Source: a virus. From it: a DNA stretch of 38,496 nt. This document shows, piece after piece, positions 2,678-38,496 of the stretch (position 1 is its first letter; each line of letters starts with the position of its first letter). Under the pieces are notes generated by a model. The model worked only from the letters and a program-made list of their open reading frames with translations. It had not been told where the DNA came from and made no database searches. The position numbers and the translations under genes were made by a program. The stretch lies in the IMG/VR virus record IMGVR_UViG_3300045988_142547; one strand, written 5' to 3'.

Positions 2678-3169
2678 ATGAATGACGATAATACGGTTCA
2701 GCTTGAAGCTGCTGTGTTGAGTTTTAAAAAAATGCGGCTCGGAACGTTTGAAATGGATTATCAGTTTACTGACGGCCAGGATGTGTTTATCCTAGAAAGT
2801 GACGGCATGATTGTACCGATGAAATGGAGAGCTACTCCTTATCAATGCATGATGCATCATCATGGTGTGGTCTTTCTCGATGTAGAAGCTGCACTCGCTG
2901 CTAGGGATAAGCGCCTGTTATTGGTATCAATCAATGAGTTCAGAAAGCTGCGCAATGATGGCTGGGAGCCGTCCTTTGGTGGGTCTAGTTTAAAAGATGC
3001 AGAACCTAAGTGGTGCATCGGGTTCCTAGATGGTGACCTGTTCACCCGGATGGATGTCACAAATTGCTCTTTCCCTATGTTTGGCTATTTTAAAAATAGG
3101 GATGATGTAAGGATGGCCATCATGTTATTTGGTAAAGAAATTAAGCGCCTATTCTGCGGCGAGTTCTAA
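2678..3169 (+). CDS. Hypothetical protein (163 aa)
   Basis: ORF 2669..3169. ATG 2678 lies 8 nt after AAGGGG (2664..2669). Confidence 0.55.
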   Translation: MNDDNTVQLEAAVLSFKKMRLGTFEMDYQFTDGQDVFILESDGMIVPMKWRATPYQCMMHHHGVVFLDVEAALAARDKRLLLVSINEFRKLRNDGWEPSFGGSSLKDAEPKWCIGFLDGDLFTRMDVTNCSFPMFGYFKNRDDVRMAIMLFGKEIKRLFCGEF

Positions 3170-3332: not shown

Positions 3333-3572
3333 ATGGCGCTTGTTGTTTACTCACGGGATAATTGCCCACAGTGTAATTTCACTAAGGAATTTTTAAAAAA
3401 TCATAATATCCCGTTTGAAACGGTCAATGTGGAAGTTCAGGACGGCGCATTGGAAATCTTACGGCATTACGGCTTCCAGTCGCTGCCGGTCGTATCGATT
3501 GACGATGAACTGTCCGACCAAACGAAGACCTGGTTCGGGTTCAGACCGGACCGCTTAGAATCTTTATTGTAG
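3333..3572 (+). CDS. nrdH: NrdH-type glutaredoxin-like redoxin
   Basis: 79 aa. Has the CPQC active site near the N-terminus and WFGFRPDRL, which matches the NrdH WSGFRP(D/E) signature. RBS AAGGAGGAGG. Confidence 0.85.
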   Translation: MALVVYSRDNCPQCNFTKEFLKNHNIPFETVNVEVQDGALEILRHYGFQSLPVVSIDDELSDQTKTWFGFRPDRLESLL

Positions 3573-3584
3573 GAGGTTAGGTTT

Positions 3585-3983
3585 TTGCGTTATAAAAAAA
3601 TAGCCGAGCAGCGGCTGCGTGATTATCCAAATTATGACAGGGAGATTGCTGCTCATCGCATGAGCTGGTTATGGCATGACCCGGATTGTAATGCTTGGAT
3701 TAAGGGGAAGGGCTCGAACTCGAAAGCAATCGAAAATGAAATGCTAAAAGTCGAATCATCGCGCTATATCCAAAATCGACTATTTTGGCAGCAATGCGTG
3801 AATGAAGTATTGGATGAACTCGACCCGAATCAGCGCATGTACGTATCGGAGTATTATTTCGAAAATGTCTACGATTACCGCTCTTTGGCTAAAAAGCACT
3901 TTACGAATAAAAATGTCATCATGAGGGCGTGTGACCGAGCGTGCATGCTGCTGCTTGAAAAATTAGGCGAAAATGTGGACTAA
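3585..3983 (+). CDS. rinA: RinA-family late-gene transcriptional activator
   Basis: 132 aa, TTG start 7 nt after AGGAGG. LRDYPNYDREI matches staphylococcal RinA LCDYPNYHKQL. The SEYYFEN block matches RinA QEYYFNK. The C-terminus looks like a sigma-70 region-4 HTH. Confidence 0.75.
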   Translation: MRYKKIAEQRLRDYPNYDREIAAHRMSWLWHDPDCNAWIKGKGSNSKAIENEMLKVESSRYIQNRLFWQQCVNEVLDELDPNQRMYVSEYYFENVYDYRSLAKKHFTNKNVIMRACDRACMLLLEKLGENVD

Positions 3984-4006
3984 TTTCACGAAGGGACAAA
4001 AATCGC

Positions 4007-4035
4007 TTGTTGTCCCAGCTTTTATGTGATATATT
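4007..4035 (+). promoter_or_regulatory. Sigma-A-type promoter with extended -10 (P4)
   Basis: -35 TTGTTG (4007..4012), 17-nt spacer, TGa + TATATT (4027..4035). The downstream sequence gctagtgtggaaag resembles the initial transcribed region of P1/P2 (agacagtgaagg). Confidence 0.6.
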
Positions 4036-4041
4036 GCTAGT

Positions 4042-4320
4042 GTGGAAAGTTGCGAGAGCGTACTTCCTGCACAGATGTCATAGGTTTGACACTCCTACAG
4101 TTTCGGGGGCTTTGGTGCAGCTCCCGTTTATGCCCTTTACTGGTACAACGTGGATTTTCTTTTTTTCCTTTGTAAAATCCTTTGCCCAGGTTTATTTTTT
4201 GCCACGTTGAGCCGTTCGATTCGGCTGTGGGGCTTTCAAGGCATCCATCCTTGGTGCAATATCATTTTAACAAAACTAAAAAAGAAAGGAGCCCGGAGCG
4301 ATTTTATATCGCTCTTTTTT
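4042..4320 (+). ncRNA. Candidate ~280-nt structured non-coding transcript, or cis-acting leader of the methyltransferase gene
   Basis: Bounded by promoter P4 and an intrinsic terminator, with no RBS-preceded ORF. Hairpins: 4152..4158/4174..4180 (ggatttt/aaaatcc) and 4210..4226 (agccg-TTCGATT-cggct, like a tRNA T-arm). There is also caagg/ccttg. A possible pseudoknot is ctgcac 4067 / gtgcag 4115 interleaved with cggggg 4104 / ctcccg 4121. Confidence 0.4.
4296..4320 (+). terminator. Intrinsic terminator
   Basis: Perfect 7-bp stem gagcgat / atcgctc with loop tttat, followed by TTTTTT (4315..4320). It ends 24 nt before the methyltransferase ATG. Confidence 0.6.
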
Positions 4321-4343
4321 ATTGGCTCGGATAGGTAAAAACA

Positions 4344-5615
4344 ATGCAGATAGAAAAAGTGAAAATTTCGGATTTATTGGAATATAAAAACAATGCAAAA
4401 GAGCACCCTCAGTGGCAAATCGAGCAAATCGTTGAATCTATCGAAAAATTCGGATTTAATGACCCGATTGCGATAGACGAAAATAATACGATAATCGAAG
4501 GGCACGGTCGTCTTTACGCGCTGCAAGAAATGGGTGCGGAAGAGGTGGAATGCATCCGCCTGTCGCACTTGGGCGAAAATGAAAAAAAAGCATACATACT
4601 CGCTCATAATAAGTTGACTATGAATACCGAGTTCGATGCGGACCTGCTCGCTCAGGAGCTGGGCGAAATCGAAGGAATCGACATGAGCTCATTCGGTTTC
4701 CTTATGGACCCGCTCATCGAAGTAGTCGAGGATGACTTTGACGATGAAGCAGCTATCGAGCAGCCGGAGCCGATTGCAAAGCTCGGGGATGTGTATCAGC
4801 TCGGGGAGCACTTCCTTATGTGTGGGGACAGCACTGATTTCATCGCTGTGAAAAAATTATGCGGTGAGGCTCTTATGGACTTACTTGTTACGGACCCACC
4901 TTATAATGTGGCCTATGAGGGCAAAACCGAGGACGCGCTTACGATTGAGAATGATAATATGGACGATGCTAAATTCCGCGAATTCTTAAAAGCTGCATTT
5001 GCGTGTGCCGATGGCGTTATGCGCCCAGGCGCTGCGTTCTATATTTGGCATGCGGATTCGGAAGGATTCAACTTCCGCGGTGCCTGCCGTGATATTGGTT
5101 GGACTGTTCGACAATGTCTGATATGGAATAAGAACCAAATGGTCCTAGGCCGCCAGGATTATCAATGGAAGCATGAGCCCTGCCTTTACGGTTGGAAGGA
5201 TGGAGCTGCTCATTATTTCGTTGATGACCGGAACCTGCTCACGGTACTAGAAGAAGAATCGGAATTAAAGAAAATGTCAAAAGCGGAACTCATTAATTAT
5301 ATCCTGGAAATCCAGGAGCAAACCGCGACCACTGTGATTAACGAAGTGAAGCCTAGTCGTAATGGTCTACACCCTACGATGAAGCCGCTGCGCCTAATCG
5401 AGCGCCTGGTTCGTAACTCTAGTAAAAAAGGCGAGAATGTACTGGACTTGTTTAATGGCAGTGGGTCCACTCTTATGGTCTGCGAGCAGTTGGGCCGCCG
5501 TTATTATGGCATGGAGCTTGACCCTCGTTATGTGGATGCTACCATCGAGCGCTGGGAAGAATTCACGGGTAAAAAAGCAGTGAAGATATTTTCAAACAAT
5601 CAAGACAGCGAATAG
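4344..5615 (+). CDS. ParB-like nuclease domain fused to a beta-class N6-adenine/N4-cytosine DNA methyltransferase (orphan, no cognate endonuclease)
   Basis: The N-terminus (NDPIAIDENNTIIEGHGRLYAL) looks like a ParB/Sulfiredoxin-type domain. Motif IV is TDPPYNV. The SAM-binding motif I, VLDLFNGSGST, lies near the C-terminus, giving the IV-then-I order typical of the N6_N4_Mtase family. Confidence 0.85.
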   Translation: MQIEKVKISDLLEYKNNAKEHPQWQIEQIVESIEKFGFNDPIAIDENNTIIEGHGRLYALQEMGAEEVECIRLSHLGENEKKAYILAHNKLTMNTEFDADLLAQELGEIEGIDMSSFGFLMDPLIEVVEDDFDDEAAIEQPEPIAKLGDVYQLGEHFLMCGDSTDFIAVKKLCGEALMDLLVTDPPYNVAYEGKTEDALTIENDNMDDAKFREFLKAAFACADGVMRPGAAFYIWHADSEGFNFRGACRDIGWTVRQCLIWNKNQMVLGRQDYQWKHEPCLYGWKDGAAHYFVDDRNLLTVLEEESELKKMSKAELINYILEIQEQTATTVINEVKPSRNGLHPTMKPLRLIERLVRNSSKKGENVLDLFNGSGSTLMVCEQLGRRYYGMELDPRYVDATIERWEEFTGKKAVKIFSNNQDSE

Positions 5616-6482
5616 GAGTTTTTTTTGTGAATGGTTATTTTATCAAGGTTTATTTAATGCAAAACATTTCTAAAAGAGAACGTTTAAAGCTTTGCAAACC
5701 TTGATTTTACGCCATTTGTAGGCGTTTATAAACGTGAGGAGAGTTAGTGCAGAGTGTGAAAAGAGTTTATATGAAGAATTGGCTTGTGAATAAATTTATC
5801 GTTTTTCGCAAAGGTCAAAAGTTTTGAAAAGGTCGAAAAATTTTTAAACACAAAACATTTCATTTTTTCACGGTTTTTCGAGATTTCTTTGTGAATCGTT
5901 ATGAACTTACTTTTTAAGGTTTCATAGAGACTTTTTTTACGAGATTTAAGGGTTTGAAAACCTTGATTTTATGCGGTTTTCAGGCTCTTGATAACGTTAA
6001 ACATTTCAACAACGTTTTTTGAACAGACGTTTTGTGTTTCCATTTGTGAAAAAATCGCATTTAAACGGGAAAAAGCTGCCAAGACTTTTTTTGACAACGT
6101 AACAGTTTTTTAAAACCTTGATTTGGCGCCATTTCTACGGGGTGCATTTTCGCAAGGTTTTACAAGAAACAGAGCAATAAAAGTTATAAATGTTATTTTT
6201 GTGCTTATTGTGAAAAATTCTCATGCGTTTGTGGTCTTTTGGCACAAAGAGAGATATTTTTTAACAATGAGTTTTTAGCCTTGTGCATTTTTCGTGTTAT
6301 CACGATCTAAAATCGCAAAGGTTTTTTATAAGATTTCAGAACCCTATAACGGCGCCTTTTCTCGGGTGTCGTTTTTCTGTTTTTACCGCGCAAGAGTTTC
6401 CAAGAGGTTGGGCGTCCTTTTCGCTTGTGAACCGTTTGCGCGTAAAACAACCACAGATACAAAAGACTAGCAAAAAAAGGAA
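5616..6482 (+). repeat. 867-bp ORF-free, T/A-tract-rich region with reiterated motifs; candidate packaging-recognition or late-promoter region, or a large non-coding RNA
   Basis: TGTGAA occurs 7 times, all on the + strand (5626, 5755, 5785, 5890, 6045, 6209, 6426). AAACCTTGATTT occurs 3 times (5696, 5957, 6112), with inverted partners ATCAAGGTTT (5642) and CAAGGTTTT (6153). AAACATTTC occurs 3 times (5662, 5853, 5999). The only ORF here (6283..6486) has no RBS. Confidence 0.7.
6349..6384 (+). terminator. Terminator-like hairpin about 100 nt upstream of terS
   Basis: 8-bp stem acggcgcc / ggtgtcgt (two G-U pairs) with an 8-nt loop, followed by TTTTcTgTTTTT. Confidence 0.4.
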
Positions 6483-6935
6483 GTGAGGCGGTTGGCTAGT
6501 GGAAATGAAAAAAATTTAATACCTAACTCCCAGCGAACTCCCGAGGAATTGCGAGAAATGACTCGCAAAGGTGGCATTGCTAGTGGTAAGGCAAGGCGTC
6601 AAAAAGCGAACCTTAAAAAAGCCATGGTGACCTTGCTGTCGATGAATGTACAAAGTGATAAATCGCGCGCGTTGCTGGAGTCTATGGGTCTAGAGCCCAC
6701 GAATGAGATGCTGCTCGCTGTGACTACGTTTCAGCAAGCGGTCAAGGGTAACCAGCGCGCCATGGAGAATGTCATGAAGCTGTCTACTACTGAGAAGGAT
6801 AGACTGGATGAGTCTGAGCAACGGGAACGAATCAAGGCTGCTAAAATGAAAAACCAGCAGCTGGCTGAGAATGGTGGCCGTGAGGCTGTAATAGAGACGG
6901 TGGTGTTTATGAATGAAGCGAACATACCAGATTGA
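6483..6935 (+). CDS. terS: Putative terminase small subunit
   Basis: 150 aa, overlapping the terL start by 23 nt. Basic N-terminal segment: RTPEELREMTRKGGIASGKARRQK. Called from position and size. The start is uncertain (GTG 6483 or TTG 6492). Confidence 0.55.
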   Translation: MRRLASGNEKNLIPNSQRTPEELREMTRKGGIASGKARRQKANLKKAMVTLLSMNVQSDKSRALLESMGLEPTNEMLLAVTTFQQAVKGNQRAMENVMKLSTTEKDRLDESEQRERIKAAKMKNQQLAENGGREAVIETVVFMNEANIPD

Positions 6936-8193
6936 TTTACCGTCTATGGTCGGGAGCGGTTATGGTGCTTTCTGGCGCTCTCAAAATTTTTATAGAGTTG
7001 TTAAGGGGTCGCGTGGTTCGAAGAAATCAAAAACGACCGCTCTTAATTTTATTATACGTTTATTGAAGCACCCCTGGTCTAACCTGCTGGTGGTCCGGCG
7101 ATATTCAAATACAAATAGACAATCCACTTTTACTGATTTCAAGTGGGCCGCTAATCGGTTAAAGGTCACGCACTTATTTAAATTTAATGAGTCGCTGCCG
7201 GAGATTACCGTTCGGGCTACTGGTCAGAAGATTCTGTTTAGGGGTCTTGATGATGATTTAAAAATCACTTCTATCACGGTGGATGTCGGGGTCTTATGTT
7301 GGGCCTGGTTCGAAGAAGCGTATCAAATAGAAAATGAAGAAAAGTTCAGCACGGTCGTTGAGTCCATTCGTGGGTCCTACGATTCCCCGGACTTCTTCAA
7401 ACAAATCACTGTTACATTTAACCCATGGAATGAGCGCCACTGGTTGAAGGCTGCATTCTTCGACCGGGAGACGAGCCGTGCGGATACGCTGGCTATTACC
7501 ACGACCTTTAGGTGTAATGAGTGGCTTGATGATGTCGATATCCAGCGATATATGGATTTATACGAAACCAATCCACGACGTGCTCGTATCGTGTGCGATG
7601 GTGAGTGGGGTGTCGCGGAAGGTCTTATTTATGAGAATGTTAAAATCCGGGACTTCGATGTGGCGCTGCTGGCTAAGGATAAGGATAACCAGTTAGCGGT
7701 CGGACTCGACTTCGGGTTTATCCATGACCCCACTGCGCTGTGTGTCAGCTATATCAATGAATCTAAAAAAGAGATATATATCTTTGATGAATTCTACGAG
7801 AAGGGGCTGGTCACTCGTCAAGTGGCGGATATGCTGCAGAAAAAAGGATATGCTAAAGCACCAATCATTGCCGATAGTGCTGAGGCTCGCCTTATCTATG
7901 AACTAAAAACTGAGCATGGTATCACTCGTATCAAGCCGAGTCGTAAGGGTCGGGACAGTGTAAAAGCTGGGATTTCCAAGCTGCAGGGTTATAAAATTTA
8001 TGTGCATCCTAAGTGCACCAGTATCATGGATGAGTTTTATAGTTATTGTTATGTTAGGGACAAAGATGGCAAGTGGACCAATGAGCCGGAAGATGCGAAC
8101 AACCACTTGATGGATGCGCTGCGGTACAGTTTACAAGTCATCGAAGTTCAGAAGGTCAAAGTACGAAACAAAGAAAGGATGGGATTCTATTGA
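6913..8193 (+). CDS. terL: Terminase large subunit (PBSX/Terminase_3-like)
   Basis: 426 aa. Has a Walker-A-like KGSRGSKKSKT, a Walker-B-like LCWAWFEEA, and a C-terminal nuclease region with acidic motifs (GLDFGF..DPTA, IADSAE). Lies between terS and the portal gene. Confidence 0.9.
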   Translation: MKRTYQIDLPSMVGSGYGAFWRSQNFYRVVKGSRGSKKSKTTALNFIIRLLKHPWSNLLVVRRYSNTNRQSTFTDFKWAANRLKVTHLFKFNESLPEITVRATGQKILFRGLDDDLKITSITVDVGVLCWAWFEEAYQIENEEKFSTVVESIRGSYDSPDFFKQITVTFNPWNERHWLKAAFFDRETSRADTLAITTTFRCNEWLDDVDIQRYMDLYETNPRRARIVCDGEWGVAEGLIYENVKIRDFDVALLAKDKDNQLAVGLDFGFIHDPTALCVSYINESKKEIYIFDEFYEKGLVTRQVADMLQKKGYAKAPIIADSAEARLIYELKTEHGITRIKPSRKGRDSVKAGISKLQGYKIYVHPKCTSIMDEFYSYCYVRDKDGKWTNEPEDANNHLMDALRYSLQVIEVQKVKVRNKERMGFY

Positions 8194-9578
8194 TGTATAC
8201 TTACCCACGCGAAGGGTACGATGAGCACTCGTTGAATCGCGGAGCCATTGCGGCTCTTATATTAAAGCATCGCTCTGCAGCGATGAATTTAAAAAAGAAT
8301 TTGGATTATTATTTAGCGAAGCAGAAGGAGGACCTGGTCAGTAATCATGCCAAGGATATATCGGACACGGCCACTGGTTACTTCCTGGGCAATGCTATTA
8401 CTTATAAAAATACAGGGGACGTGGACATCGACCCGTTGCTCGAAGCGTTCGATGCGGCCGAGGTAGATGAAAATGACCACGATAACGCGTTCGATATGTC
8501 CATCTTCGGCGTGGCCTATGAATATATTTACGCTAAGGAAGGCGCCAATGAATTGGATATAAAATCGCTTGAACCAACTAATACGTTTATTGTGTATGAT
8601 GATTCGATTGAGCAAAAGCCGCTTTTTGCTGTTTATTATTACGAGCGTACCAACTCGAAAAATGACACGACCATGTATTATGCGAATGTGTTCACTGAAA
8701 ATCTGCATTATTCATTCTTATTGAGTATGAGTGGCACGGTCCTAGTCAATGATACAGTTGCGAAAGTGGAGCCCCATTATATGGGTGAGATTCCGGTCGT
8801 TGAGTATCAGAATAATAAATTCAAAATCGGGGACTTTGAGCAACAAATCAATCTTATTGATGCATATAATAAATTGAGCATTACTCGCTTGAAGGATAAG
8901 GAGCAATTTGTGGATGCTATCCTGTTAATCTATGGCAGCCAGTTTGCGGATACGCCGGAGGAGATGAGCGAGTTTGCTAAGGTCCTACGTGAGGAGCGCA
9001 TGCTGGAACTGCCTACTGACGCGAAAGCGGAGTACCTAATTCGCACCCTGGATGAAGCCGGTGTCGAAATTCTGCGCAAAGCCATCAAGGATGACATTTA
9101 TACGTTCAGCCATGTTCCGAACCTATCGGATGAGAATTTCGCTGGTAATACTTCGGGTGTTGCTATGGAATATAAAATTCTTGGATTGGCTATGATTACC
9201 AAAACGAAGGAGCGCTACTACAGAAAGGGGCTGCGCAAGCGCATCAGAATTTTCTGTCATCGCTTGGGTCTGAACTCAATTGCTATGGAAGCGAAGAATA
9301 TCGTTCCGCAGTTCAGTCGTGGCTTACCTAAGAATTTACTTGAGCTTTCTCAAATCGTGGCGAACCTTGACGGTCGTGTTACGAGTGAGACTGCGTTGGG
9401 CTTGCTGCCATTCGTTGAGGACCCTGCTGAGGAAGTAGAAAAACTTAAGGAAGAAAAAGCGGAAGCGCAGGAGCGTGAGCGCTCGTTCTTTGCGAATACT
9501 CCAATAGAAACCGATAATAATTTCGTGAGTGGAAATGCGGAGGAACGATTCGGGGGCGAGGTAAATGAAGCCGAATAG
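8193..9578 (+). CDS. Portal protein, SPP1 gp6-like
   Basis: About 461 aa, with ATG 8193 overlapping the terL stop (tTGATG). The block TGYFLGNAITYK and the overall length fit SPP1-type portals. Position is directly after terL. Confidence 0.85.
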   Translation: MYTYPREGYDEHSLNRGAIAALILKHRSAAMNLKKNLDYYLAKQKEDLVSNHAKDISDTATGYFLGNAITYKNTGDVDIDPLLEAFDAAEVDENDHDNAFDMSIFGVAYEYIYAKEGANELDIKSLEPTNTFIVYDDSIEQKPLFAVYYYERTNSKNDTTMYYANVFTENLHYSFLLSMSGTVLVNDTVAKVEPHYMGEIPVVEYQNNKFKIGDFEQQINLIDAYNKLSITRLKDKEQFVDAILLIYGSQFADTPEEMSEFAKVLREERMLELPTDAKAEYLIRTLDEAGVEILRKAIKDDIYTFSHVPNLSDENFAGNTSGVAMEYKILGLAMITKTKERYYRKGLRKRIRIFCHRLGLNSIAMEAKNIVPQFSRGLPKNLLELSQIVANLDGRVTSETALGLLPFVEDPAEEVEKLKEEKAEAQERERSFFANTPIETDNNFVSGNAEERFGGEVNEAE

Positions 9579-10560
9579 TGAGCTGTGGATTCATGAGAAG
9601 GCGCGTTTTATGGTCGGGCAAATGGCTAAGGCTGAGGATACGGCTGCAATCATGAACCAGGGTTATTACCTGGCGCAGAAGCGGTTGGAGCAAGAAGCGG
9701 ATAAAATATTCGCGCGTTTCCAGTCCGCTTATGGTCTTACCGAAGACGAGGCTCGGGAAATTTTATCACGATCAGGACTGGACATAGATGCTGCAGTACG
9801 GGCATTAGCGGCTAGTGAAAAAGGTGGGCGTAATATTTTGGCCGAGTTGAATGGTCCAGCGTATGCTCACAGGATTCAAGCGCTGCGTGAGTCTAGTGTG
9901 GAAATTGACCGGCTCATGGAGCAATTGATTAAGCGTGACCGTAAGCTGCTTACTAATCACTTGAAACGGTCAGCTAAGGATGCATATCTTCACAGCGTGT
10001 ATCTGACCCAGCAGCAAGCTGGCGTATCGTTTAAATTTAAGGACTACGACCCCGAGCATGTGGACAAGCTGCTTCGGGTCAAGTGGTCCAAGAAGCATTT
10101 TAAGGATGCCATCGGGGATAATATCCACGGGCTTGGGGCTGCCATCAAGGAGGAGTTCCTGGTTAATTATTTAACCGGCAGGTCCACTGAAGCTGCTGCG
10201 GATAGTATCGCCCAACGATTCAATTTTAGTTATTATCAAGCGCGGCGTTTGGTCCGGACTGAAAGTACGTATATTGAAGCCGAGATGGAAGCCCAGGGGT
10301 ACGAGGCATGCCATATTGATAAATATGAATATGTTTCTATCCTGGATAATCGTACATCGGAGCTATGTCAGCAGCATGACGGGAAAATCTACAAAGTATC
10401 AGAGCGAATGCCTGGTGTGAATTTTCCGCCGCTTCATGTGTGGTGCCGGTCCACGACCATTGCGCATATCCCGGATGATTACCTGGAGCAGGCTCCTGCT
10501 GGAGCTGTGGCCCGGTCCGGTCAGCGTGTATCGTTTAATGACTGGAAAAAGAATTTTTAA
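9565..10560 (+). CDS. Minor head / head morphogenesis protein (SPP1 gp7 / Mu F family)
   Basis: 331 aa. The C-terminal block RLVRTESTYIEAEMEAQGY...LDNRTSELCQQHDGKIY...PPLHVWCRSTT is typical of the Phage_Mu_F domain. Confidence 0.85.
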   Translation: MKPNSELWIHEKARFMVGQMAKAEDTAAIMNQGYYLAQKRLEQEADKIFARFQSAYGLTEDEAREILSRSGLDIDAAVRALAASEKGGRNILAELNGPAYAHRIQALRESSVEIDRLMEQLIKRDRKLLTNHLKRSAKDAYLHSVYLTQQQAGVSFKFKDYDPEHVDKLLRVKWSKKHFKDAIGDNIHGLGAAIKEEFLVNYLTGRSTEAAADSIAQRFNFSYYQARRLVRTESTYIEAEMEAQGYEACHIDKYEYVSILDNRTSELCQQHDGKIYKVSERMPGVNFPPLHVWCRSTTIAHIPDDYLEQAPAGAVARSGQRVSFNDWKKNF

Positions 10561-10577
10561 AAAGTCGATGATAAGTG

Positions 10578-10606
10578 TTGCAATCAACCCCATTCAGAGT
10601 TACTAT
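10578..10606 (+). promoter_or_regulatory. Sigma-A-type promoter (P3) of the P1/P2 family, located inside the morphogenesis region
   Basis: -35 TTGCAA, 17-nt spacer ending cAGAGT, -10 TACTAT followed by ATA. About 19 of 26 positions match the P1/P2 core cagagttattatatagacagtgaagg. Confidence 0.6.
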
Positions 10607-10659
10607 ATACATGTAAAGGAAAACCTTACAAAAAAGTAAACCGAAGGGGTAATGAAAAA

Positions 10660-10875
10660 ATGGATACACTAAATCTTGAAGGACTAAATAAAAAGCAAAT
10701 CTTTAAAAAAGCTATGAAAGCTAAAAAGGATAAATTAGCCGCTCGCTACGAAAAAGAACCGGAATTGAAATTATACGATGAAGGTAAAATTACATATACG
10801 GAATATGTAAGACGTGCCGTTGCCCGTGAAAAAGCTGAGGGCAAAGATGATGTATGGTGGTACGAAGGCGAGTAA
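10660..10875 (+). CDS. Small highly charged hypothetical protein (71 aa) in a stand-alone promoter/terminator cassette
   Basis: RBS GAAGGGG lies 8 nt before the ATG. Own promoter (P3) and own terminator (10895..10923). Confidence 0.6.
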   Translation: MDTLNLEGLNKKQIFKKAMKAKKDKLAARYEKEPELKLYDEGKITYTEYVRRAVAREKAEGKDDVWWYEGE

Positions 10876-10894
10876 TTAAAAACGAATTAAAATG

Positions 10895-10923
10895 AAGCTG
10901 GTTGCTTAGGCAGCCGGCTTTTT
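10895..10923 (+). terminator. Intrinsic terminator
   Basis: 9-bp stem gctggttgc / gcagccggc (two G-U pairs), loop ttag, then TTTTT. Flanking AA..TT extends the stem. Confidence 0.7.
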
Positions 10924-11002
10924 AATTTGCCCAGGCTTGGATGGCATAAAAAGCTAAGGATTACATAGTCGGGGACGACTTAAAAAATAGGAGGTTTTCA
11001 GT

Positions 11003-11599
11003 ATGGAAAACGAAGAAAAAAATGTAAATGTCAACCTGGATGAACCAGCAGCGCCTGAGGAGTCTGCAGAACCAAAAGCGCCCGAAGTGAACCCGGATGA
11101 CGAGAAAAAATACACTGACGCGGATGTCAATGCTATCATTGATAAAAAATTCGCGAAGTGGAAGCAAGACCTCGAGCGCAAGGAGACCGAAGCTAAAAAA
11201 TTGGCGAAAATGAACGCCGATGAAAAAGCGAAGTATGAGCGTGAAAAAGCTGAGCGTGAATTGGCCGACCGTGAAGCTGCAATCACTAGACGTGAGCTTG
11301 CTGCCACTGCTAAGGAGACCCTAGCCGAGAAAGGGCTGCCGTCTGACCTTGCTAGTGTGTTAGATTATACGGATGCGGAATCGTGCCAGGCATCAATTGC
11401 TGCGGTCGAGAAAGCATTCAGCGCTGCTGTCAATAAGGCAGTAGAAAGTAAACTAAAGGGTGGCGCCCCTATTCCAAAAGCGCCGGAAGCTGGTGGGGTA
11501 TCTCATGAGCAATTCTTACGAATGACAGCGAATGAGCGCATTGCTTTGAAAATGTCTGACCCCGAATTATACGAATCTTTAAAATCGAAAGGAAGATAA
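11003..11599 (+). CDS. Capsid scaffolding protein (DUF4355-like)
   Basis: 198 aa, acidic and coiled-coil rich (KKYTDADVNAIIDKKFAKWKQDLERKETEAKK...). Lies directly upstream of the major capsid gene. Strong RBS TAGGAGG. Confidence 0.75.
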   Translation: MENEEKNVNVNLDEPAAPEESAEPKAPEVNPDDEKKYTDADVNAIIDKKFAKWKQDLERKETEAKKLAKMNADEKAKYEREKAERELADREAAITRRELAATAKETLAEKGLPSDLASVLDYTDAESCQASIAAVEKAFSAAVNKAVESKLKGGAPIPKAPEAGGVSHEQFLRMTANERIALKMSDPELYESLKSKGR

Positions 11600-11605
11600 A
11601 AAATT

Positions 11606-12445
11606 ATGCCACAAGGACAAACTAAAATTACAAATTTATTCGACCCAGAAGTATTAGCGGATATGCTAAACGAGCAAACTGGTAAGCACATCAAATTCGC
11701 GCCTTTAGCGGATGTAGATAAAACTTTAGAAGGTACACCAGGGGACACGCTTACTGTGCCACAATGGAACTATATTGGTGACGCTGCGGAAGTTGCAGAA
11801 GGAGCTGCGATTCCAGTTGAGCAATTAGGTCATACAACTACTAAAATGAAAGTTAAAAAAGCAGCGAAAGGTGTGGAAATCACTGACGAAGCATTGCTTT
11901 CAGGCTATGGTGACCCTAAAGGCACAGCCGTTCGTCAATTGGCGAAATCAATCGACCAAAAAGTCGACCAAGATGTGTTAGAAGCAGCTCGCACTGCAAC
12001 TCAAGCGCATACTACTAAAAAAGGACTAAAAATCGAAGATATCAATGCAGCGCAAAATGTGCTTAACTCTGAATCTGACGATGATGTTTATGTATTATTG
12101 TGCAATACTAAGTATGCGAACGACTTACGTTTGGAAGCTGGTAAGGACTTCTTAAGCGGCTCTCAATTAGGAGCAGAAGCGTTTGTAAAAGGTACTTATG
12201 GTGCCATCTTAAATACTCAAATCGTTAAATCTAATAAATTAGCGGATACAGAAGCTATCCTTGTATTAACTAACAAGGATGAGGAAGATGGAACTAAAGC
12301 ATTCAAAATCGTTTCTAAGCGTGATACGCTCTTAGAAATTGAGCGTTATGCTTCTAAAAAATCAACAGGTTTATTCGCTGACCGTCACTATGGTGCGTAC
12401 TTACAAAATGCGAAGAAAGTTGTTAAAATTACAATCACAAAATAG
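11606..12445 (+). CDS. Major capsid protein
   Basis: 279 aa, starting 7 nt after the scaffold stop. Codon usage looks highly expressed. The position between scaffold and connector genes is conserved. Confidence 0.8.
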   Translation: MPQGQTKITNLFDPEVLADMLNEQTGKHIKFAPLADVDKTLEGTPGDTLTVPQWNYIGDAAEVAEGAAIPVEQLGHTTTKMKVKKAAKGVEITDEALLSGYGDPKGTAVRQLAKSIDQKVDQDVLEAARTATQAHTTKKGLKIEDINAAQNVLNSESDDDVYVLLCNTKYANDLRLEAGKDFLSGSQLGAEAFVKGTYGAILNTQIVKSNKLADTEAILVLTNKDEEDGTKAFKIVSKRDTLLEIERYASKKSTGLFADRHYGAYLQNAKKVVKITITK

Positions 12446-12465
12446 GACAGGGGGGCTGGGTTTAA

Positions 12466-12681
12466 ATGAAGTATAAAGTTCTTAATCCAGTATACCTGGA
12501 ACGCGAAGATTTCCATTGCCCAGTTGGAGCCGTTATCGATTTATCTGAGGACCGTGTTCTTGAGCTGGTCCAAAAGTTAGAGCGTATTGACGAGCCATTC
12601 AGTTCTTATTTTGCAGTTATCGGAGGGGATGATGATGAGCAATCTATTGACCCAGTTGAAGCTGTTGACGAAGGAGAGTAA
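12466..12681 (+). CDS. Hypothetical protein (71 aa, acidic C-terminus)
   Basis: RBS CAGGGGGG. Small ORF after the capsid gene. Function unknown. Confidence 0.5.
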   Translation: MKYKVLNPVYLEREDFHCPVGAVIDLSEDRVLELVQKLERIDEPFSSYFAVIGGDDDEQSIDPVEAVDEGE

Positions 12682-12949
12682 CGAGGAGTTACTCTCTCTT
12701 TACTTGGAGCAAGCTGAGCAAATGATTCTACTTGAAACGAACCGGACTCATGTTCCGTTGTCGCTTCGAATGACTCAGTTACAATTGGCGCAATACTTAA
12801 TGGAGCGTAATGGTAATGCCGGGGAAGTCAGCCGCAGTGAGGGAGGTATCTCCATTACCTATTCGGATGAATTGCCTGTTAATATCATGAAGCCTATTAA
12901 GGCAGCCAGGTTAGTGAGGTGCGGTGGCCGTGTATTTGAAAAACCTTAA
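12635..12949 (+). CDS. Head-tail connector protein (gp6-like / SPP1 gp15-like)
   Basis: ORF 12587..12949. GGAGGGG (12622..12628) is followed by three ATG codons. The N-terminus LLTQLKLLTKESNEELLSLYLEQAEQMILLETNR fits the gp6-like connector pattern. Confidence 0.65.
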   Translation: MSNLLTQLKLLTKESNEELLSLYLEQAEQMILLETNRTHVPLSLRMTQLQLAQYLMERNGNAGEVSRSEGGISITYSDELPVNIMKPIKAARLVRCGGRVFEKP

Positions 12950-13250
12950 ATCATATAAAGTTTTTCCGCGGACCGTCACGATCGATAGCGAAGGCGGAAG
13001 GTATGCCGATTACAGCAGCGAGCCTATTGTGTGCGAGTTGGAGACCTGGCCTGCAGGAGGCAGGGTCCAGGCTGCTATGTACGGGGAGCGCCTGCAGTAC
13101 ATGCGGAATGCGAACTGTTACCTAAGCGAACCAATCAAGGAGAACGATGGCGTGGCTGTGTTTTCGGATGATGCGCCGGATTATAAAGTAGTAAGTGTTC
13201 AGAGCTACACTGAGCATAAAGTGCTATTACTGGAGGCGATTGATAAATGA
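12924..13250 (+). CDS. Head closure / head-tail adaptor protein
   Basis: 108 aa, called from position and size. The start is uncertain: GTG 12924 or GTG 12930, the latter with better spacing to GAGGTG. Confidence 0.55.
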   Translation: MAVYLKNLKSYKVFPRTVTIDSEGGRYADYSSEPIVCELETWPAGGRVQAAMYGERLQYMRNANCYLSEPIKENDGVAVFSDDAPDYKVVSVQSYTEHKVLLLEAIDK

Positions 13251-13768
13251 GTGACGGCTGGGCGAGTCTATCTCACAAACTGGGGGAGCTGCCCTGGGCC
13301 ACTCAAGCTGCTATCAAGAAAATAGCAATGGGGCAAGCCACCAAGAAGGTACAGGGGACAGCTAAACGAAAAGCTCCAGGATTCAGTGGGGACCTGCGAA
13401 AGCAGATTTATACCAAAACTAAATTTGAAGCGGATGCCATTGTCGGGGTCGTATACTCCAATAATGAGCATGCTGCTTTTGTTGAGTTTGGTACCGGTCC
13501 GGAAGGTGCTGCAAATCATTCCGGCATCAGTCCGAATGTGAGTGTGTCTTATCGAACGGACCCGTGGATGATTCCCGGGGCGCTACTTAGCAGAAAGGCT
13601 GTTAATAAATACTGGGCAGGTCGGAAGTATGACCCGGAGGCTTTGTATTGGACTGACGGTCAGCGAGCGCAGCCGTTCTTATATCCTGCATTGAAGCAGA
13701 ATGAAGAAAAGCTGCCGCGTATTTTTGCTAAAGTAGTCAAGGACGAATTGAGGAGGCTGTCTATATGA
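13247..13768 (+). CDS. HK97 gp10-family tail component
   Basis: 173 aa. AKRKAPGFSGDLRKQIY...NEHAAFVEFGTGP matches the HK97-gp10 family pattern (aP..tG.Lr.si ... a.fvEfGT). The start forms an ATGA overlap with the upstream gene. Confidence 0.8.
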   Translation: MSDGWASLSHKLGELPWATQAAIKKIAMGQATKKVQGTAKRKAPGFSGDLRKQIYTKTKFEADAIVGVVYSNNEHAAFVEFGTGPEGAANHSGISPNVSVSYRTDPWMIPGALLSRKAVNKYWAGRKYDPEALYWTDGQRAQPFLYPALKQNEEKLPRIFAKVVKDELRRLSI

Positions 13769-15068: not shown

Positions 15069-15466
15069 AGCGAACCCTTACCGAGCGAATCTATGACCTT
15101 TACCCCATTGCATTAGACTGTGGGGTGGAGGTCATTTCTTTTTGGACTTATTCCCTGGACGAGTTGGAGGATATCTTCGAAGCGTTCGAGCGGAGTGAGC
15201 GCCGGAGGTTTAAAGCTAAAATTTCCATGAATTATGCTTTGGCTCGTCATATCCAGGACCATGTCGCTGCGCTATTGGTTGAGAACCATAAAACCAAGAG
15301 CTTATACGACCTATATCCGGACTTCTTTTCTGCAGAAGATAAAGAGGAAGCTGCTGGCCTAGTCAGCGAGCGTATGAAGCAGCTAGAGCTAGAAAAGCAT
15401 AAAGAAGCGATGCGTGCGTTTGCTGCTCGTTTTAATGCAAATATGAAAAATGCGAAAGGGGGCTAA
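14613..15466 (+). CDS. Tail assembly chaperone -1 frameshift fusion (gpG-T analogue); join(14613..15005,15005..15466)
   Basis: I translated the -1 frame by hand. It is open without a stop from 15005 through GTG 15125 to the stop at 15464..15466. ORF 15125..15466 has no RBS or ATG of its own. Confidence 0.7.
14999..15005 (+). promoter_or_regulatory. Programmed -1 ribosomal frameshift slippery heptamer G_GGT_TTT
   Basis: The zero-frame reading is tcG GGT TTT ttc, a canonical X_XXY_YYZ pattern. The -1 frame is the downstream T-like ORF. Confidence 0.7.
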
Positions 15467-24141: not shown

Positions 24142-24194
24142 AAATTCGAAGGGGGCTCTTTGTGGGCCCTTTTCTATTTTGAAAGGAGGAGCGC

Positions 24195-26755: not shown

Positions 26756-26789
26756 GTGGGTCGCTCCAAGTGGGCGGCCCACTTTTTTT
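26756..26789 (+). terminator. Strong intrinsic terminator ending the late operon
   Basis: 9-bp GC-rich stem gtgggtcgc / gcggcccac (one G-U pair) with a 9-nt loop. Followed by seven T residues and preceded by an A-run. Confidence 0.85.
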
Positions 26790-26957
26790 GTGCTCTCTTT
26801 TCACGCTGCGTGACCGCTGCGAGATTTTACACGGTCCGGCATGTGTTTATATGTCCAGGGTCCTATCGAGCAAATAGGTCGGTTTTTGTGCCAATTATCA
26901 ATACATAATATAGAAGCAAAAAAAATAAAAAATAATTGAATTTATGTAAATTAACTG

Positions 26958-38222: not shown

Positions 38223-38496
38223 GGACGGGTGGTTCTTTAGTGGTCTGAAGTCTTATGCGACCATTTTCGGTTACTACTCATCGGACCATCCTATGACGAC
38301 TCACGTATATAAGCGCTACTTGGAAGACGCTGCCTTGTTTGGTGGTGTCATCGTGGCCCTGCTCTATATGCAGGAGCATGGCATCCAGGGTCGTATCATA
38401 CGTGTAAACAATTCAAACAAACGAAACAATCAGCCGGTTATGGTCCAGGCGCTGCTGCCCGGTCAGACCGAATTTACTCCCTATGTGGAATACATT
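38203..38496 (+). CDS. Hypothetical protein, N-terminal part of the junction-spanning gene (continues at 56..214)
   Basis: From ATG 38203 the frame is open for exactly 98 codons to the contig end, and continues in frame after the 55-nt overlap. Confidence 0.65.
   Translation, partial: MYVIQNKDGWFFSGLKSYATIFGYYSSDHPMTTHVYKRYLEDAALFGGVIVALLYMQEHGIQGRIIRVNNSNKRNNQPVMVQALLPGQTEFTPYVEYI
38442..38496. repeat. Terminal direct repeat, copy 2 (identical to 1..55)
   Basis: Exact 55-nt identity with the contig start. Confidence 0.9.

Follow-up and report, generated by a model that had tools for sequence, protein, structure and literature searches.

A gene-free, motif-reiterated tract upstream of terS in a predicted streptococcal siphophage, with short motifs and terminators under selection

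What purpose an 867-nucleotide (nt) segment without a gene might serve in a tightly packed phage genome is the question raised by IMG/VR record IMGVR_UViG_3300045988_142547, whose 38,496 nt are referred to here as the window. The segment, which we call gapB (positions 5616 to 6482, + strand), runs from the stop codon of a ParB-N6/N4 DNA methyltransferase gene (4344 to 5615, +) to the start of the gene in the terS position, and our analysis confirms it as the largest noncoding tract of the window, with a second gap of 360 nt (gapA, 3984 to 4343) between an ArpU/RinA-type late regulator gene and the methyltransferase gene. An earlier, sequence-only reading of this DNA had described reiterated motifs in gapB and had proposed either a DNA element, combining a packaging (pac) or TerS-loading site with a RinA-dependent late promoter, or a large noncoding RNA of the GOLLD/ROOL class. 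By comparing natural variants and relatives of the phage, we find that selection preserves two short motifs and a cluster of 3' hairpins in gapB, and we tentatively favor the reading (probability of about 35%) that the tract is an accessory, moron-like noncoding cassette of protein-recognition sites and terminators that would modulate expression of the late operon.

The motif counts and coordinates described previously were all exact. TTGTGAA is present six times in gapB (5625 to 5631, 5784 to 5790, 5889 to 5895, 6044 to 6050, 6208 to 6214, and 6425 to 6431), with a further copy of the hexamer TGTGAA at 5755 to 5760; all are on the + strand, oriented with transcription, and neither form occurs on the − strand of the tract. 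The 12-mer AAACCTTGATTT (5696 to 5707, 5958 to 5969, and 6113 to 6124) and the 9-mer AAACATTTC (5662 to 5670, 5853 to 5861, and 5999 to 6007) each occur three times on the + strand, and inverted partial copies of the 12-mer are found as ATCAAGGTTT (5642 to 5651) and CAAGGTTTT (6153 to 6161). Across the genome the number of TTGTGAA copies is ordinary (10 observed versus 7.4 expected from shuffles), but 6 of the 10 fall in the 2.25% of the genome that is gapB (binomial P of about 3 × 10^-8), and all three copies of both AAACCTTGATTT and AAACATTTC in the genome are confined to it. No second cluster of these motifs is present elsewhere in the genome, and none lies in or near any replication gene.

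Variants carrying gapB (L001 to L003, L123, L124, and L168 to L171) are 88 to 97% identical to the window, and 19.5% of gapB columns vary among them. The six TTGTGAA and three AAACCTTGATTT copies together span 78 columns and are free of variation, where 15.2 variable columns would be expected (hypergeometric P = 1.9 × 10^-8), while the flanks of the 12-mer do vary and AAACATTTC and the inverted partial copies change at the background rate. The contrast is clear in L003, where about nine substitutions between 6418 and 6445 surround an intact TTGTGAA. L001 and L002 have lost the TGTGAA at 5755 and gained another about 11 nt downstream, and in most variants the copy at 5889 is followed about 10 nt later by an additional TTGTGAA. 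Selection thus preserves two short motifs, a 7-mer in six to eight copies and a 12-mer in three, rather than a global fold, which bears out the view that gapB is not random AT-rich filler. A 31-nt stretch at 6299 to 6329 is likewise invariant in all variants.

The order and spacing of the motifs also held up, with start-to-start distances from TTGTGAA to AAACCTTGATTT of 71, 69, and 69 nt, and the degenerate unit of about 150 nt that had been suspected extends to four recognizable modules on the + strand, beginning near 5616, 5841, 5998, and 6200. Module I (5616 to 5740) comprises TTGTGAA, an inverted partial 12-mer, AAACATTTC, AAACCTTGATTT, and a small hairpin; module II (5841 to 5997) consists of AAACATTTC, TTGTGAA, a 62-nt spacer, and AAACCTTGATTT; module III (5998 to 6165) repeats this order and spacer length; and the degenerate module IV (6200 to 6330) has kept TTGTGAA, has a decayed 12-mer, and includes the invariant 31-nt stretch. 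The identical 62-nt spacer between 7-mer and 12-mer in two modules, together with their shared block GACTTTTTTT(A/G)AC, indicates ancestry by duplication: gapB arose by duplication of a module of about 150 bp, of which four degenerate copies remain, and their number varies between variants. Among the small hairpins reported to follow the 12-mer copies, the GCGCC-loop-GGTGC stem after copy 3 (6126 to 6145, +) is invariant, with a loop that varies at two positions, but the ACGCC...GGCGT hairpin at 5709 to 5725 is destroyed in L001 and L002.

Two natural deletions and one insertion illustrate the plasticity of the tract. L123 is without one 164-nt unit (equivalently 6044 to 6207 or 6064 to 6227), a loss due to recombination between the direct repeats at 6044 to 6060 and 6208 to 6224, TTGTGAAAAA(A/T)TC(G/T)CAT, and L001 and L002 carry a 10-nt repeat insertion. 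In L122, whose TerS is 96% identical to that of the window, the core of gapB (5670 to 6417, +) is gone together with most of the methyltransferase gene; since the junction shows only TTT(C) microhomology, illegitimate deletion is likelier than precise excision. L122 is a recombinant as well as a deleted relative, with another early region and regulator and a gapA fragment (L122 positions 2688 to 3000 correspond to window positions 4128 to 4231, 5457 to 5669, and 6418 onward). It keeps the last ~160 nt of the methyltransferase gene as a pseudogene remnant and a gapB cut to about 119 nt with two TTGTGAA copies left, and its terS open reading frame (ORF) is lengthened to 168 amino acids (aa).

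The 3' end of gapB holds three + strand hairpins followed by T-runs, and this cluster is also preserved by selection. The first (6218 to 6262, about −8 kcal/mol) has had its inner sequence replaced in the L003 lineage with the hairpin kept, and the second (6278 to 6330, about −14 kcal/mol) lies inside the most invariant stretch. The third, at 6348 to 6383 (about −13 kcal/mol), is an intrinsic terminator with a stem of 8 to 10 bp that includes two G.U pairs and is followed by TTTTTCTGTTTTT; its core 8-bp stem is invariant in eight variants, each of the two pairs next to the loop is missing from one variant, and almost all variants have a different loop. It thus has the GC-rich hairpin, the U-tract on the transcribed strand, and the preserved stem of a Rho-independent terminator. 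The invariant stem, the variable loop, and the two G.U pairs, which are possible only in + strand RNA, are evidence that this hairpin is used and that the + strand, at least in the 3' part of gapB, is transcribed. Immediately downstream, a stem formed by ACTAGC and GCTAGT (6466 to 6500, +) encloses the ribosome-binding site and start codon of terS; it is found in all gapB-bearing variants and is missing in sister phages, and it may modulate terS translation. The start of terS is itself ambiguous, either GTG at 6483 or TTG at 6492.

These patterns bear directly on the idea that gapB is nonfunctional or nearly neutral DNA, a relic of local duplication or of an earlier insertion that is drifting and being lost. 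Its confinement to one shallow lineage, its absence from sister phages, and the natural deletions in L122 and L123 are what such a remnant would show, and overall gapB identity between variants resembles that of the flanking genes. The invariant motif columns against a background of 19.5% variable columns (P of about 2 × 10^-8) and the invariant terminator stem with its variable loop speak against drift, as does the retention of the tract, under the packaging-size pressure on phage genomes, in complete genomes of about 38 kb from several independent samples. We therefore consider neutrality unlikely.

A second alternative reads the modules from the other strand. The sites at 5704 to 5732 (TTTATA-17-TAAAAT) and 5966 to 5994 (TTATCA-17-TAAAAT) resemble − strand promoters, which in modules I and II would drive RNAs antisense to the methyltransferase gene and the late leader, with the 12-mer serving as the −10 box and initially transcribed region. 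They are the only 9-of-12 promoter matches in gapB besides one weak, nonconserved + strand match, both lie in repeat units, their hexamers are conserved around 17-nt spacers that differ by three to six substitutions between variants, and a − strand terminator-like hairpin is present at 6098 to 6065. Promoter-like sites in gapB are nonetheless at chance frequency (6 versus 5.3 ± 2.4 expected), module III has the 12-mer with no −10 box, and both the orientation of TTGTGAA and the selected terminator indicate the + strand, all of which makes antisense transcription a rather improbable explanation. A conserved + strand promoter was not found within gapB either.

Coding capacity does not account for the tract. 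In every frame the ORFs of gapB are 67 aa or shorter, none of the fragments matches Pfam or PHROGs, and a translated comparison with the genes of 160 related loci recovered no protein-level similarity; a hidden or decayed gene was rejected on these grounds. Variant L003 has one longer ORF (116 aa, F-rich) that is interrupted by stops in other variants and was dismissed as chance read-through, and small ORFs starting from the GTG within TTGTGAA, read by eye, are not conserved between modules. A search for tRNA and tmRNA genes recovered none. The GC content of gapB is 0.33 to 0.37, compared with about 0.46 genome-wide and 0.46 to 0.49 in the flanks.

How widely is gapB distributed? Using the terS-position protein, we searched IMG/VR, GTDB genomes, and a collection of 5.8 billion proteins with their encoding contigs, and we searched viral and metagenome contigs for the DNA patterns. 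These searches recovered gapB only in the 88 to 97% identical variants described above; the invariant core was found in four metagenome contigs, all of the same lineage, and in the three viral contigs already recovered. GenBank phages (blastn and megablast) and plasmids (blastn) gave no match to gapB, and no gapB-like sequence follows any of 78 genes related to the window's type of methyltransferase. Among viral contigs, the pair of 7-mer and 12-mer returned 38 chance-level singletons, none confirmed by nhmmer, and the paired 12-mer returned the gapB lineage along with unrelated coding repeats that have a period of 9 nt. The latter are viral contigs (L103 at 8086 to 13639, L099, L102, and L104) with AACCTTGA-bearing repeats spaced by multiples of 9 nt, a spacing that points to coding tandem repeats, and they were found only through the shared 12-mer.

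Relatives without gapB were grouped by TerS identity into sister classes of 90 to 91% (L107 and L125 to L129), 78 to 80% (L110 to L117), and 70% (L118 to L121), with a more distant class at 54 to 66% (L004 to L015 and L081, a Streptococcus equinus prophage). In these phages the spacer between terS and the gene upstream is 1 to 64 nt overall and 17 to 56 nt in the 70 to 91% classes, and most of the spacers end in the same ribosome-binding site, AAAAGGAAGTGAGGCG, as in the window. The comparison of these loci identifies gapB as a lineage-specific insertion. The gene upstream of terS also varies among relatives (L004, L107, L110, L015/L081, and L118), the occupants including ParB-methyltransferases with two C-terminal types, ParB-DUF4417 with a 178-aa protein, ParB (173 aa) with ORFs of 99 and 118 aa, and a methyltransferase without a ParB domain, which makes this position a cassette hot spot.

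The distribution also bears on the packaging question. Several features favor a pac recognition or TerS-loading region: gapB is directly upstream of terS, its motifs are reiterated on one strand, and a Terminase_3 TerL, an SPP1-type portal, and a Mu F-like head protein (in related loci) suggest headful packaging. In SPP1, the pac region consists of pacL, pacC, and pacR, in which boxes bound by TerS recur at the 5' end of terS; the short boxes of gapB are similarly reiterated beside terS in a headful-type packaging module. However, sister phages with TerS proteins 70 to 91% identical to that of the window have neither gapB nor its motifs, and no cluster of TTGTGAA or AACCTTGA lies within −3 to +2 kb of terS in sister phages, even though TerS of the window and of the 90% and 78% classes hardly differs over its first 60 residues. 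Since the tract and motifs are missing from most members of this TerS family, including phages that share the DNA-binding half of the protein, gapB cannot be the pac or TerS site of the family; L122, moreover, does without the core and L123 without one module. The bent A/T tracts suggested as part of such a site found no support either, as helical phasing was not significant and AA/TT power at 10 to 11 bp was at about the 95th percentile of shuffles. A packaging role for gapB is accordingly very unlikely.

The RinA-dependent late promoter that had been proposed for gapB is expected instead in gapA, which is conserved in sister phages. Activators of the Ltr/RinA/ArpU type bind two to four direct 7-nt repeats no more than about 59 nt past their own gene, and a terminator and the late promoter follow (PMC3753634). 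In the window the ltr-like gene (3585 to 3983, +; phrog_36) ends 1.6 kb upstream of gapB, which is therefore not at the position described for Ltr late promoters. Directly after the regulator stop codon, gapA contains a hairpin, and it then has the direct boxes TGTGATA (4026) and TGTGGAA (4041), an extended −10-like element, TGATATATT, a leader of about 270 nt with compensatory double changes at 4 of its 54 predicted pairs, and a terminator (4295 to 4322) about 20 nt before the methyltransferase start whose stem is invariant and whose loop has been replaced. The boxes read CGTGATA and CGTGGAT in a sister clade, having changed in concert, and gapA is about 78% identical at the nucleotide level in sister phages without gapB. 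It matches no Rfam family. Taken together, gapA looks like a late promoter with a structured leader, and a leader ending in a terminator implies control by terminator read-through or antitermination. This region, conserved, structured, and terminator-ending, is where the late promoter and leader of the phage group are now to be expected, and it merits study in its own right.

Similarities between gapA and gapB bear on which protein might recognize the 7-mer. Read by eye, AGTGTGGAAAG in gapA resembles AGTGTGAAAAG at 5752 in gapB, TGTGATA and TGTGGAA can be compared with TGTGAA(T/A), and the TGTG core of gapB is thus common to the presumptive Ltr boxes of gapA. Like the Ltr-responsive regions, gapB has 7-nt direct repeats oriented with transcription and a terminator, and it lies upstream of terS. 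The differences are that known boxes number two to four and are close together, no more than about 59 nt past ltr (PMC3753634), whereas gapB has six to eight copies spread over 800 bp at 1.6 to 2.4 kb from the ltr gene, and that a canonical region is already present in gapA and no promoter was identified in gapB. That the TTGTGAA copies are additional predicted Ltr sites is thus best taken as a lead.

In sister phages whose late regulator is of the DUF1492 or DUF722 type, ORF-poor gaps of 630 to 840 nt directly follow the regulator gene. Such post-regulator gaps are located at L107 positions 1725 to 2412, L118 positions 1640 to 2404, L125 positions 769 to 1411, L129 positions 785 to 1412, and L122 positions 2012 to 2687, and they are also present in L119 and L120. 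They show no homology to gapA or gapB, no reiterated motif, and no Rfam family. Late leaders that are long and noncoding seem to be a general feature of the group.

The second proposal of the sequence-only reading, a large RNA, was assessed with covariance models and with the variants. Rfam produced no match at the gathering threshold in the whole window or in seven sister loci, a permissive scan of 3900 to 6600 gave a best E value of about 1 to unrelated small families, and the tracrRNA and CRISPR-DR models did not match. Among eight variants, 3 of 143 pairs were double-changed versus 1.6 expected, a number that 71 of 500 shuffles also attained, and alifold gave a covariation term of +1.6, with the caveat that variants 88 to 97% identical are too similar for this comparison to have power. 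As a whole, gapB has a more stable predicted fold than its shuffles on either strand (z-scores of −5.3 on + and −3.8 on −), which is mainly due to inverted repeats, and the local z-score peaks at −5.0 at 6200 to 6399 on the + strand (genome mean, −0.9 ± 1.3). A long-range helix is predicted between 6237 to 6245 and 6453 to 6461, spanning the terminator cluster; in the L003/L124 lineage both partners have changed in two of the pairs (G.U to U.G and G-C to A-U) and two others are broken, and as the double changes represent a single evolutionary event they are not significant. The 9- to 10-bp long-range stems that had been envisaged between the 12-mer and its inverted partners are not under selection, the partners drifting at the background rate. 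Each of the three 12-mer copies has a different hairpin context, and the motifs show no preference for unpaired positions in the predicted + strand RNA.

With these results a large ornate RNA of the GOLLD/ROOL class is largely refuted and extremely unlikely. Only its size class, its phage context, and fold energies better than those of shuffles liken gapB to these RNAs, while any useful Rfam match and significant covariation are absent, the sequence is T-rich (34% GC), the partners needed for long-range stems are not conserved, and natural variants differ in module number and lose whole modules, which argues against a single fold. A less elaborate noncoding RNA payload, acting in trans and ending at the 6348 to 6383 terminator, is doubtful but a more serious candidate; it could take the form of a long 3'-untranslated-region (3'-UTR)-derived RNA of the methyltransferase transcript or of an RNA of about 185 nt (approximately 6198 to 6383), with a regulatory, sponge, or anti-defense role. 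In its favor are the terminator selected on the + strand, with its G.U pairs, invariant stem, and variable loop, the fold z-scores of the tract and of its 6200 to 6399 segment, the many one-sided substitutions that are G.U compatible, and the position of the 31-nt invariant block inside a predicted hairpin. Against it are the lack of an Rfam match, covariation no higher than in controls, the failure to find a conserved + strand promoter within the tract, and the nonaccessible, structurally inconsistent positions of the conserved motifs. Repeat-bearing sponge RNAs and long 3'-UTR small RNAs are known from CsrB-type RNAs and from Staphylococcus aureus RsaC, whose length varies through repeats. 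gapB shares with them one-strand reiteration, variable repeat number, and a 3' terminator, but its motifs are not predicted to be single stranded, and no homology was found. A sponge in particular was rejected, because motif accessibility in the predicted + strand RNA was not elevated.

The reading that we favor combines motif-level selection, the 3' terminators, and the narrow distribution. A noncoding cassette would have entered the leader of the late operon, at a point between the methyltransferase gene and terS, and then expanded by module duplication. Its 7-mer and 12-mer would be recognition sites for one or more sequence-specific proteins on duplex DNA, which is favored over RNA because the motifs are not preferentially unpaired. 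For the 7-mer, the leading candidate binder is the late activator of the ArpU/RinA family that the phage itself encodes, since this family binds 7-nt direct repeats in the same orientation and since the TGTG core and the resemblance of AGTGTGGAAAG to AGTGTGAAAAG point the same way. Together with the terminator cluster, the cassette would tune or insulate the transcription that enters the terS/morphogenesis operon from the methyltransferase gene, and it would be dispensable for packaging and for basic late transcription.

The comparison with morons is instructive. Morons, as defined for lambdoid phages, are autonomous accessory insertions between conserved phage genes. gapB likewise lies between genes that are adjacent in close relatives, deviates in composition, ends in an intrinsic terminator, and is probably dispensable for core functions, but unlike a moron it has no ORF payload, no match to a protein family, and no recognizable + strand promoter of its own, and it is internally a degenerate repeat array.

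Several observations weigh against the cassette interpretation. Ltr binding is putative, and the shared TGTG core carries little information; the TTGTGAA copies are 1.6 to 2.4 kb from the ltr gene and mostly 105 to 217 bp apart, whereas known boxes are close-set; and sister phages with Ltr proteins about 85% identical manage without the cassette. No conserved sigma-A-type promoter is recognizable in 6384 to 6482 or elsewhere on the + strand of gapB. Other internal terminators in the late operon mean that the 3' cluster need not mark a separate unit, and fold energies better than shuffles (z of −5.3 on +, and −5.0 at 6200 to 6399) leave room for an RNA role. A simple scan recovered strong + strand terminator-like hairpins at 10895 to 10928, 15093 to 15144, 24152 to 24179, and 26756 to 26791, within or at the end of the late operon, and late transcription must thus pass several terminators.

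Two further interpretations of the motif array were weighed. In one, the tract is again a noncoding, moron-like accessory element, but its 7-mers and 12-mers, whether in DNA or in + strand RNA, would act as decoys that titrate a nucleic-acid-binding factor of the host or the phage, such as a host defense sensor or regulator; we consider this unlikely, and if true it would offer this lineage an anti-defense or host-range advantage without encoding a protein. Alternatively, gapB could be a replication origin or iteron array recognized by a lineage-specific early protein. The reiterated direct motifs and AT-rich setting are compatible with this, as is the loss of the core in L122, whose different early region fits a trans factor encoded there. 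Yet the helicase/primase/Sak4/RusA replication module (29.6 to 37.6 kb) is 23 kb away, the motifs occur in or near no replication gene, repeats of 7 and 12 bp at irregular spacings of 105 to 262 bp are unlike phased iterons of 17 to 22 bp, no homology to plasmid or phage origins was found, and helical phasing is not significant. An origin is therefore quite improbable.

Known short recognition sequences were also considered. A cluster of Chi sites, which modulate RexAB/AddAB, was rejected: the streptococcal Chi is GCGCGTG (PMC5959072, Table 3), the reiterated motif is TTGTGAA, and the only near match is 6 of 7 positions (GCGCGTA at 6439 to 6445). DnaA boxes, CiaR/ComE/WalR boxes, the IHF consensus, rrn boxA/nut elements, and CRISPR repeats or tracrRNA were compared by eye and set aside, as few bases matched or the spacing failed.

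The genomic context is that of a complete phage. An exact 55-nt direct terminal repeat (positions 1 to 55 equal 38442 to 38496) indicates that the window is complete and circularly assembled, at about 38.44 kb, and an ORF apparently crosses the junction of the circular assembly. Such an assembly carries no information on where the ends of packaged DNA lie. All credible genes are on the + strand. Those around the two gaps include a glutaredoxin-like gene (3333 to 3572), the terS-position gene (6483 to 6935), which encodes a 150-aa protein (phrog_2412), TerL (6913 to 8193), and the portal (8190 to 9578). TerL is 75% identical to terminases of pneumococcal and Streptococcus oralis prophages, which points to a mitis-group Streptococcus as host, and no integrase or lysogeny module was seen among the genes of the window. 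By these similarities, the virus is a predicted siphophage of mitis-group Streptococcus with a genome of about 38.4 kb.

In this study, we characterized a noncoding tract that, across the databases searched, appears to have no homolog outside one shallow phage lineage and to belong to no described family, although its kind, a noncoding insertion in a late leader, is familiar. Motif-level selection in a gene-free, copy-number-variable cassette of 0.85 kb is unusual in so tightly packed a genome; with so narrow a distribution and a function that is still putative, only a limited claim can be made for it, and if it were a drifting remnant it would be ordinary. For annotation, the consequence is that neither a pac site nor a GOLLD/ROOL-like RNA should be assigned to 5616 to 6482. 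If gapB is functional, it would be a phage accessory insertion with a purely noncoding payload, in which selection acts on short reiterated motifs and terminators and not on a protein or a globular RNA. Such insertions would constitute a class that annotation pipelines ignore and that could hold regulatory or anti-defense functions.

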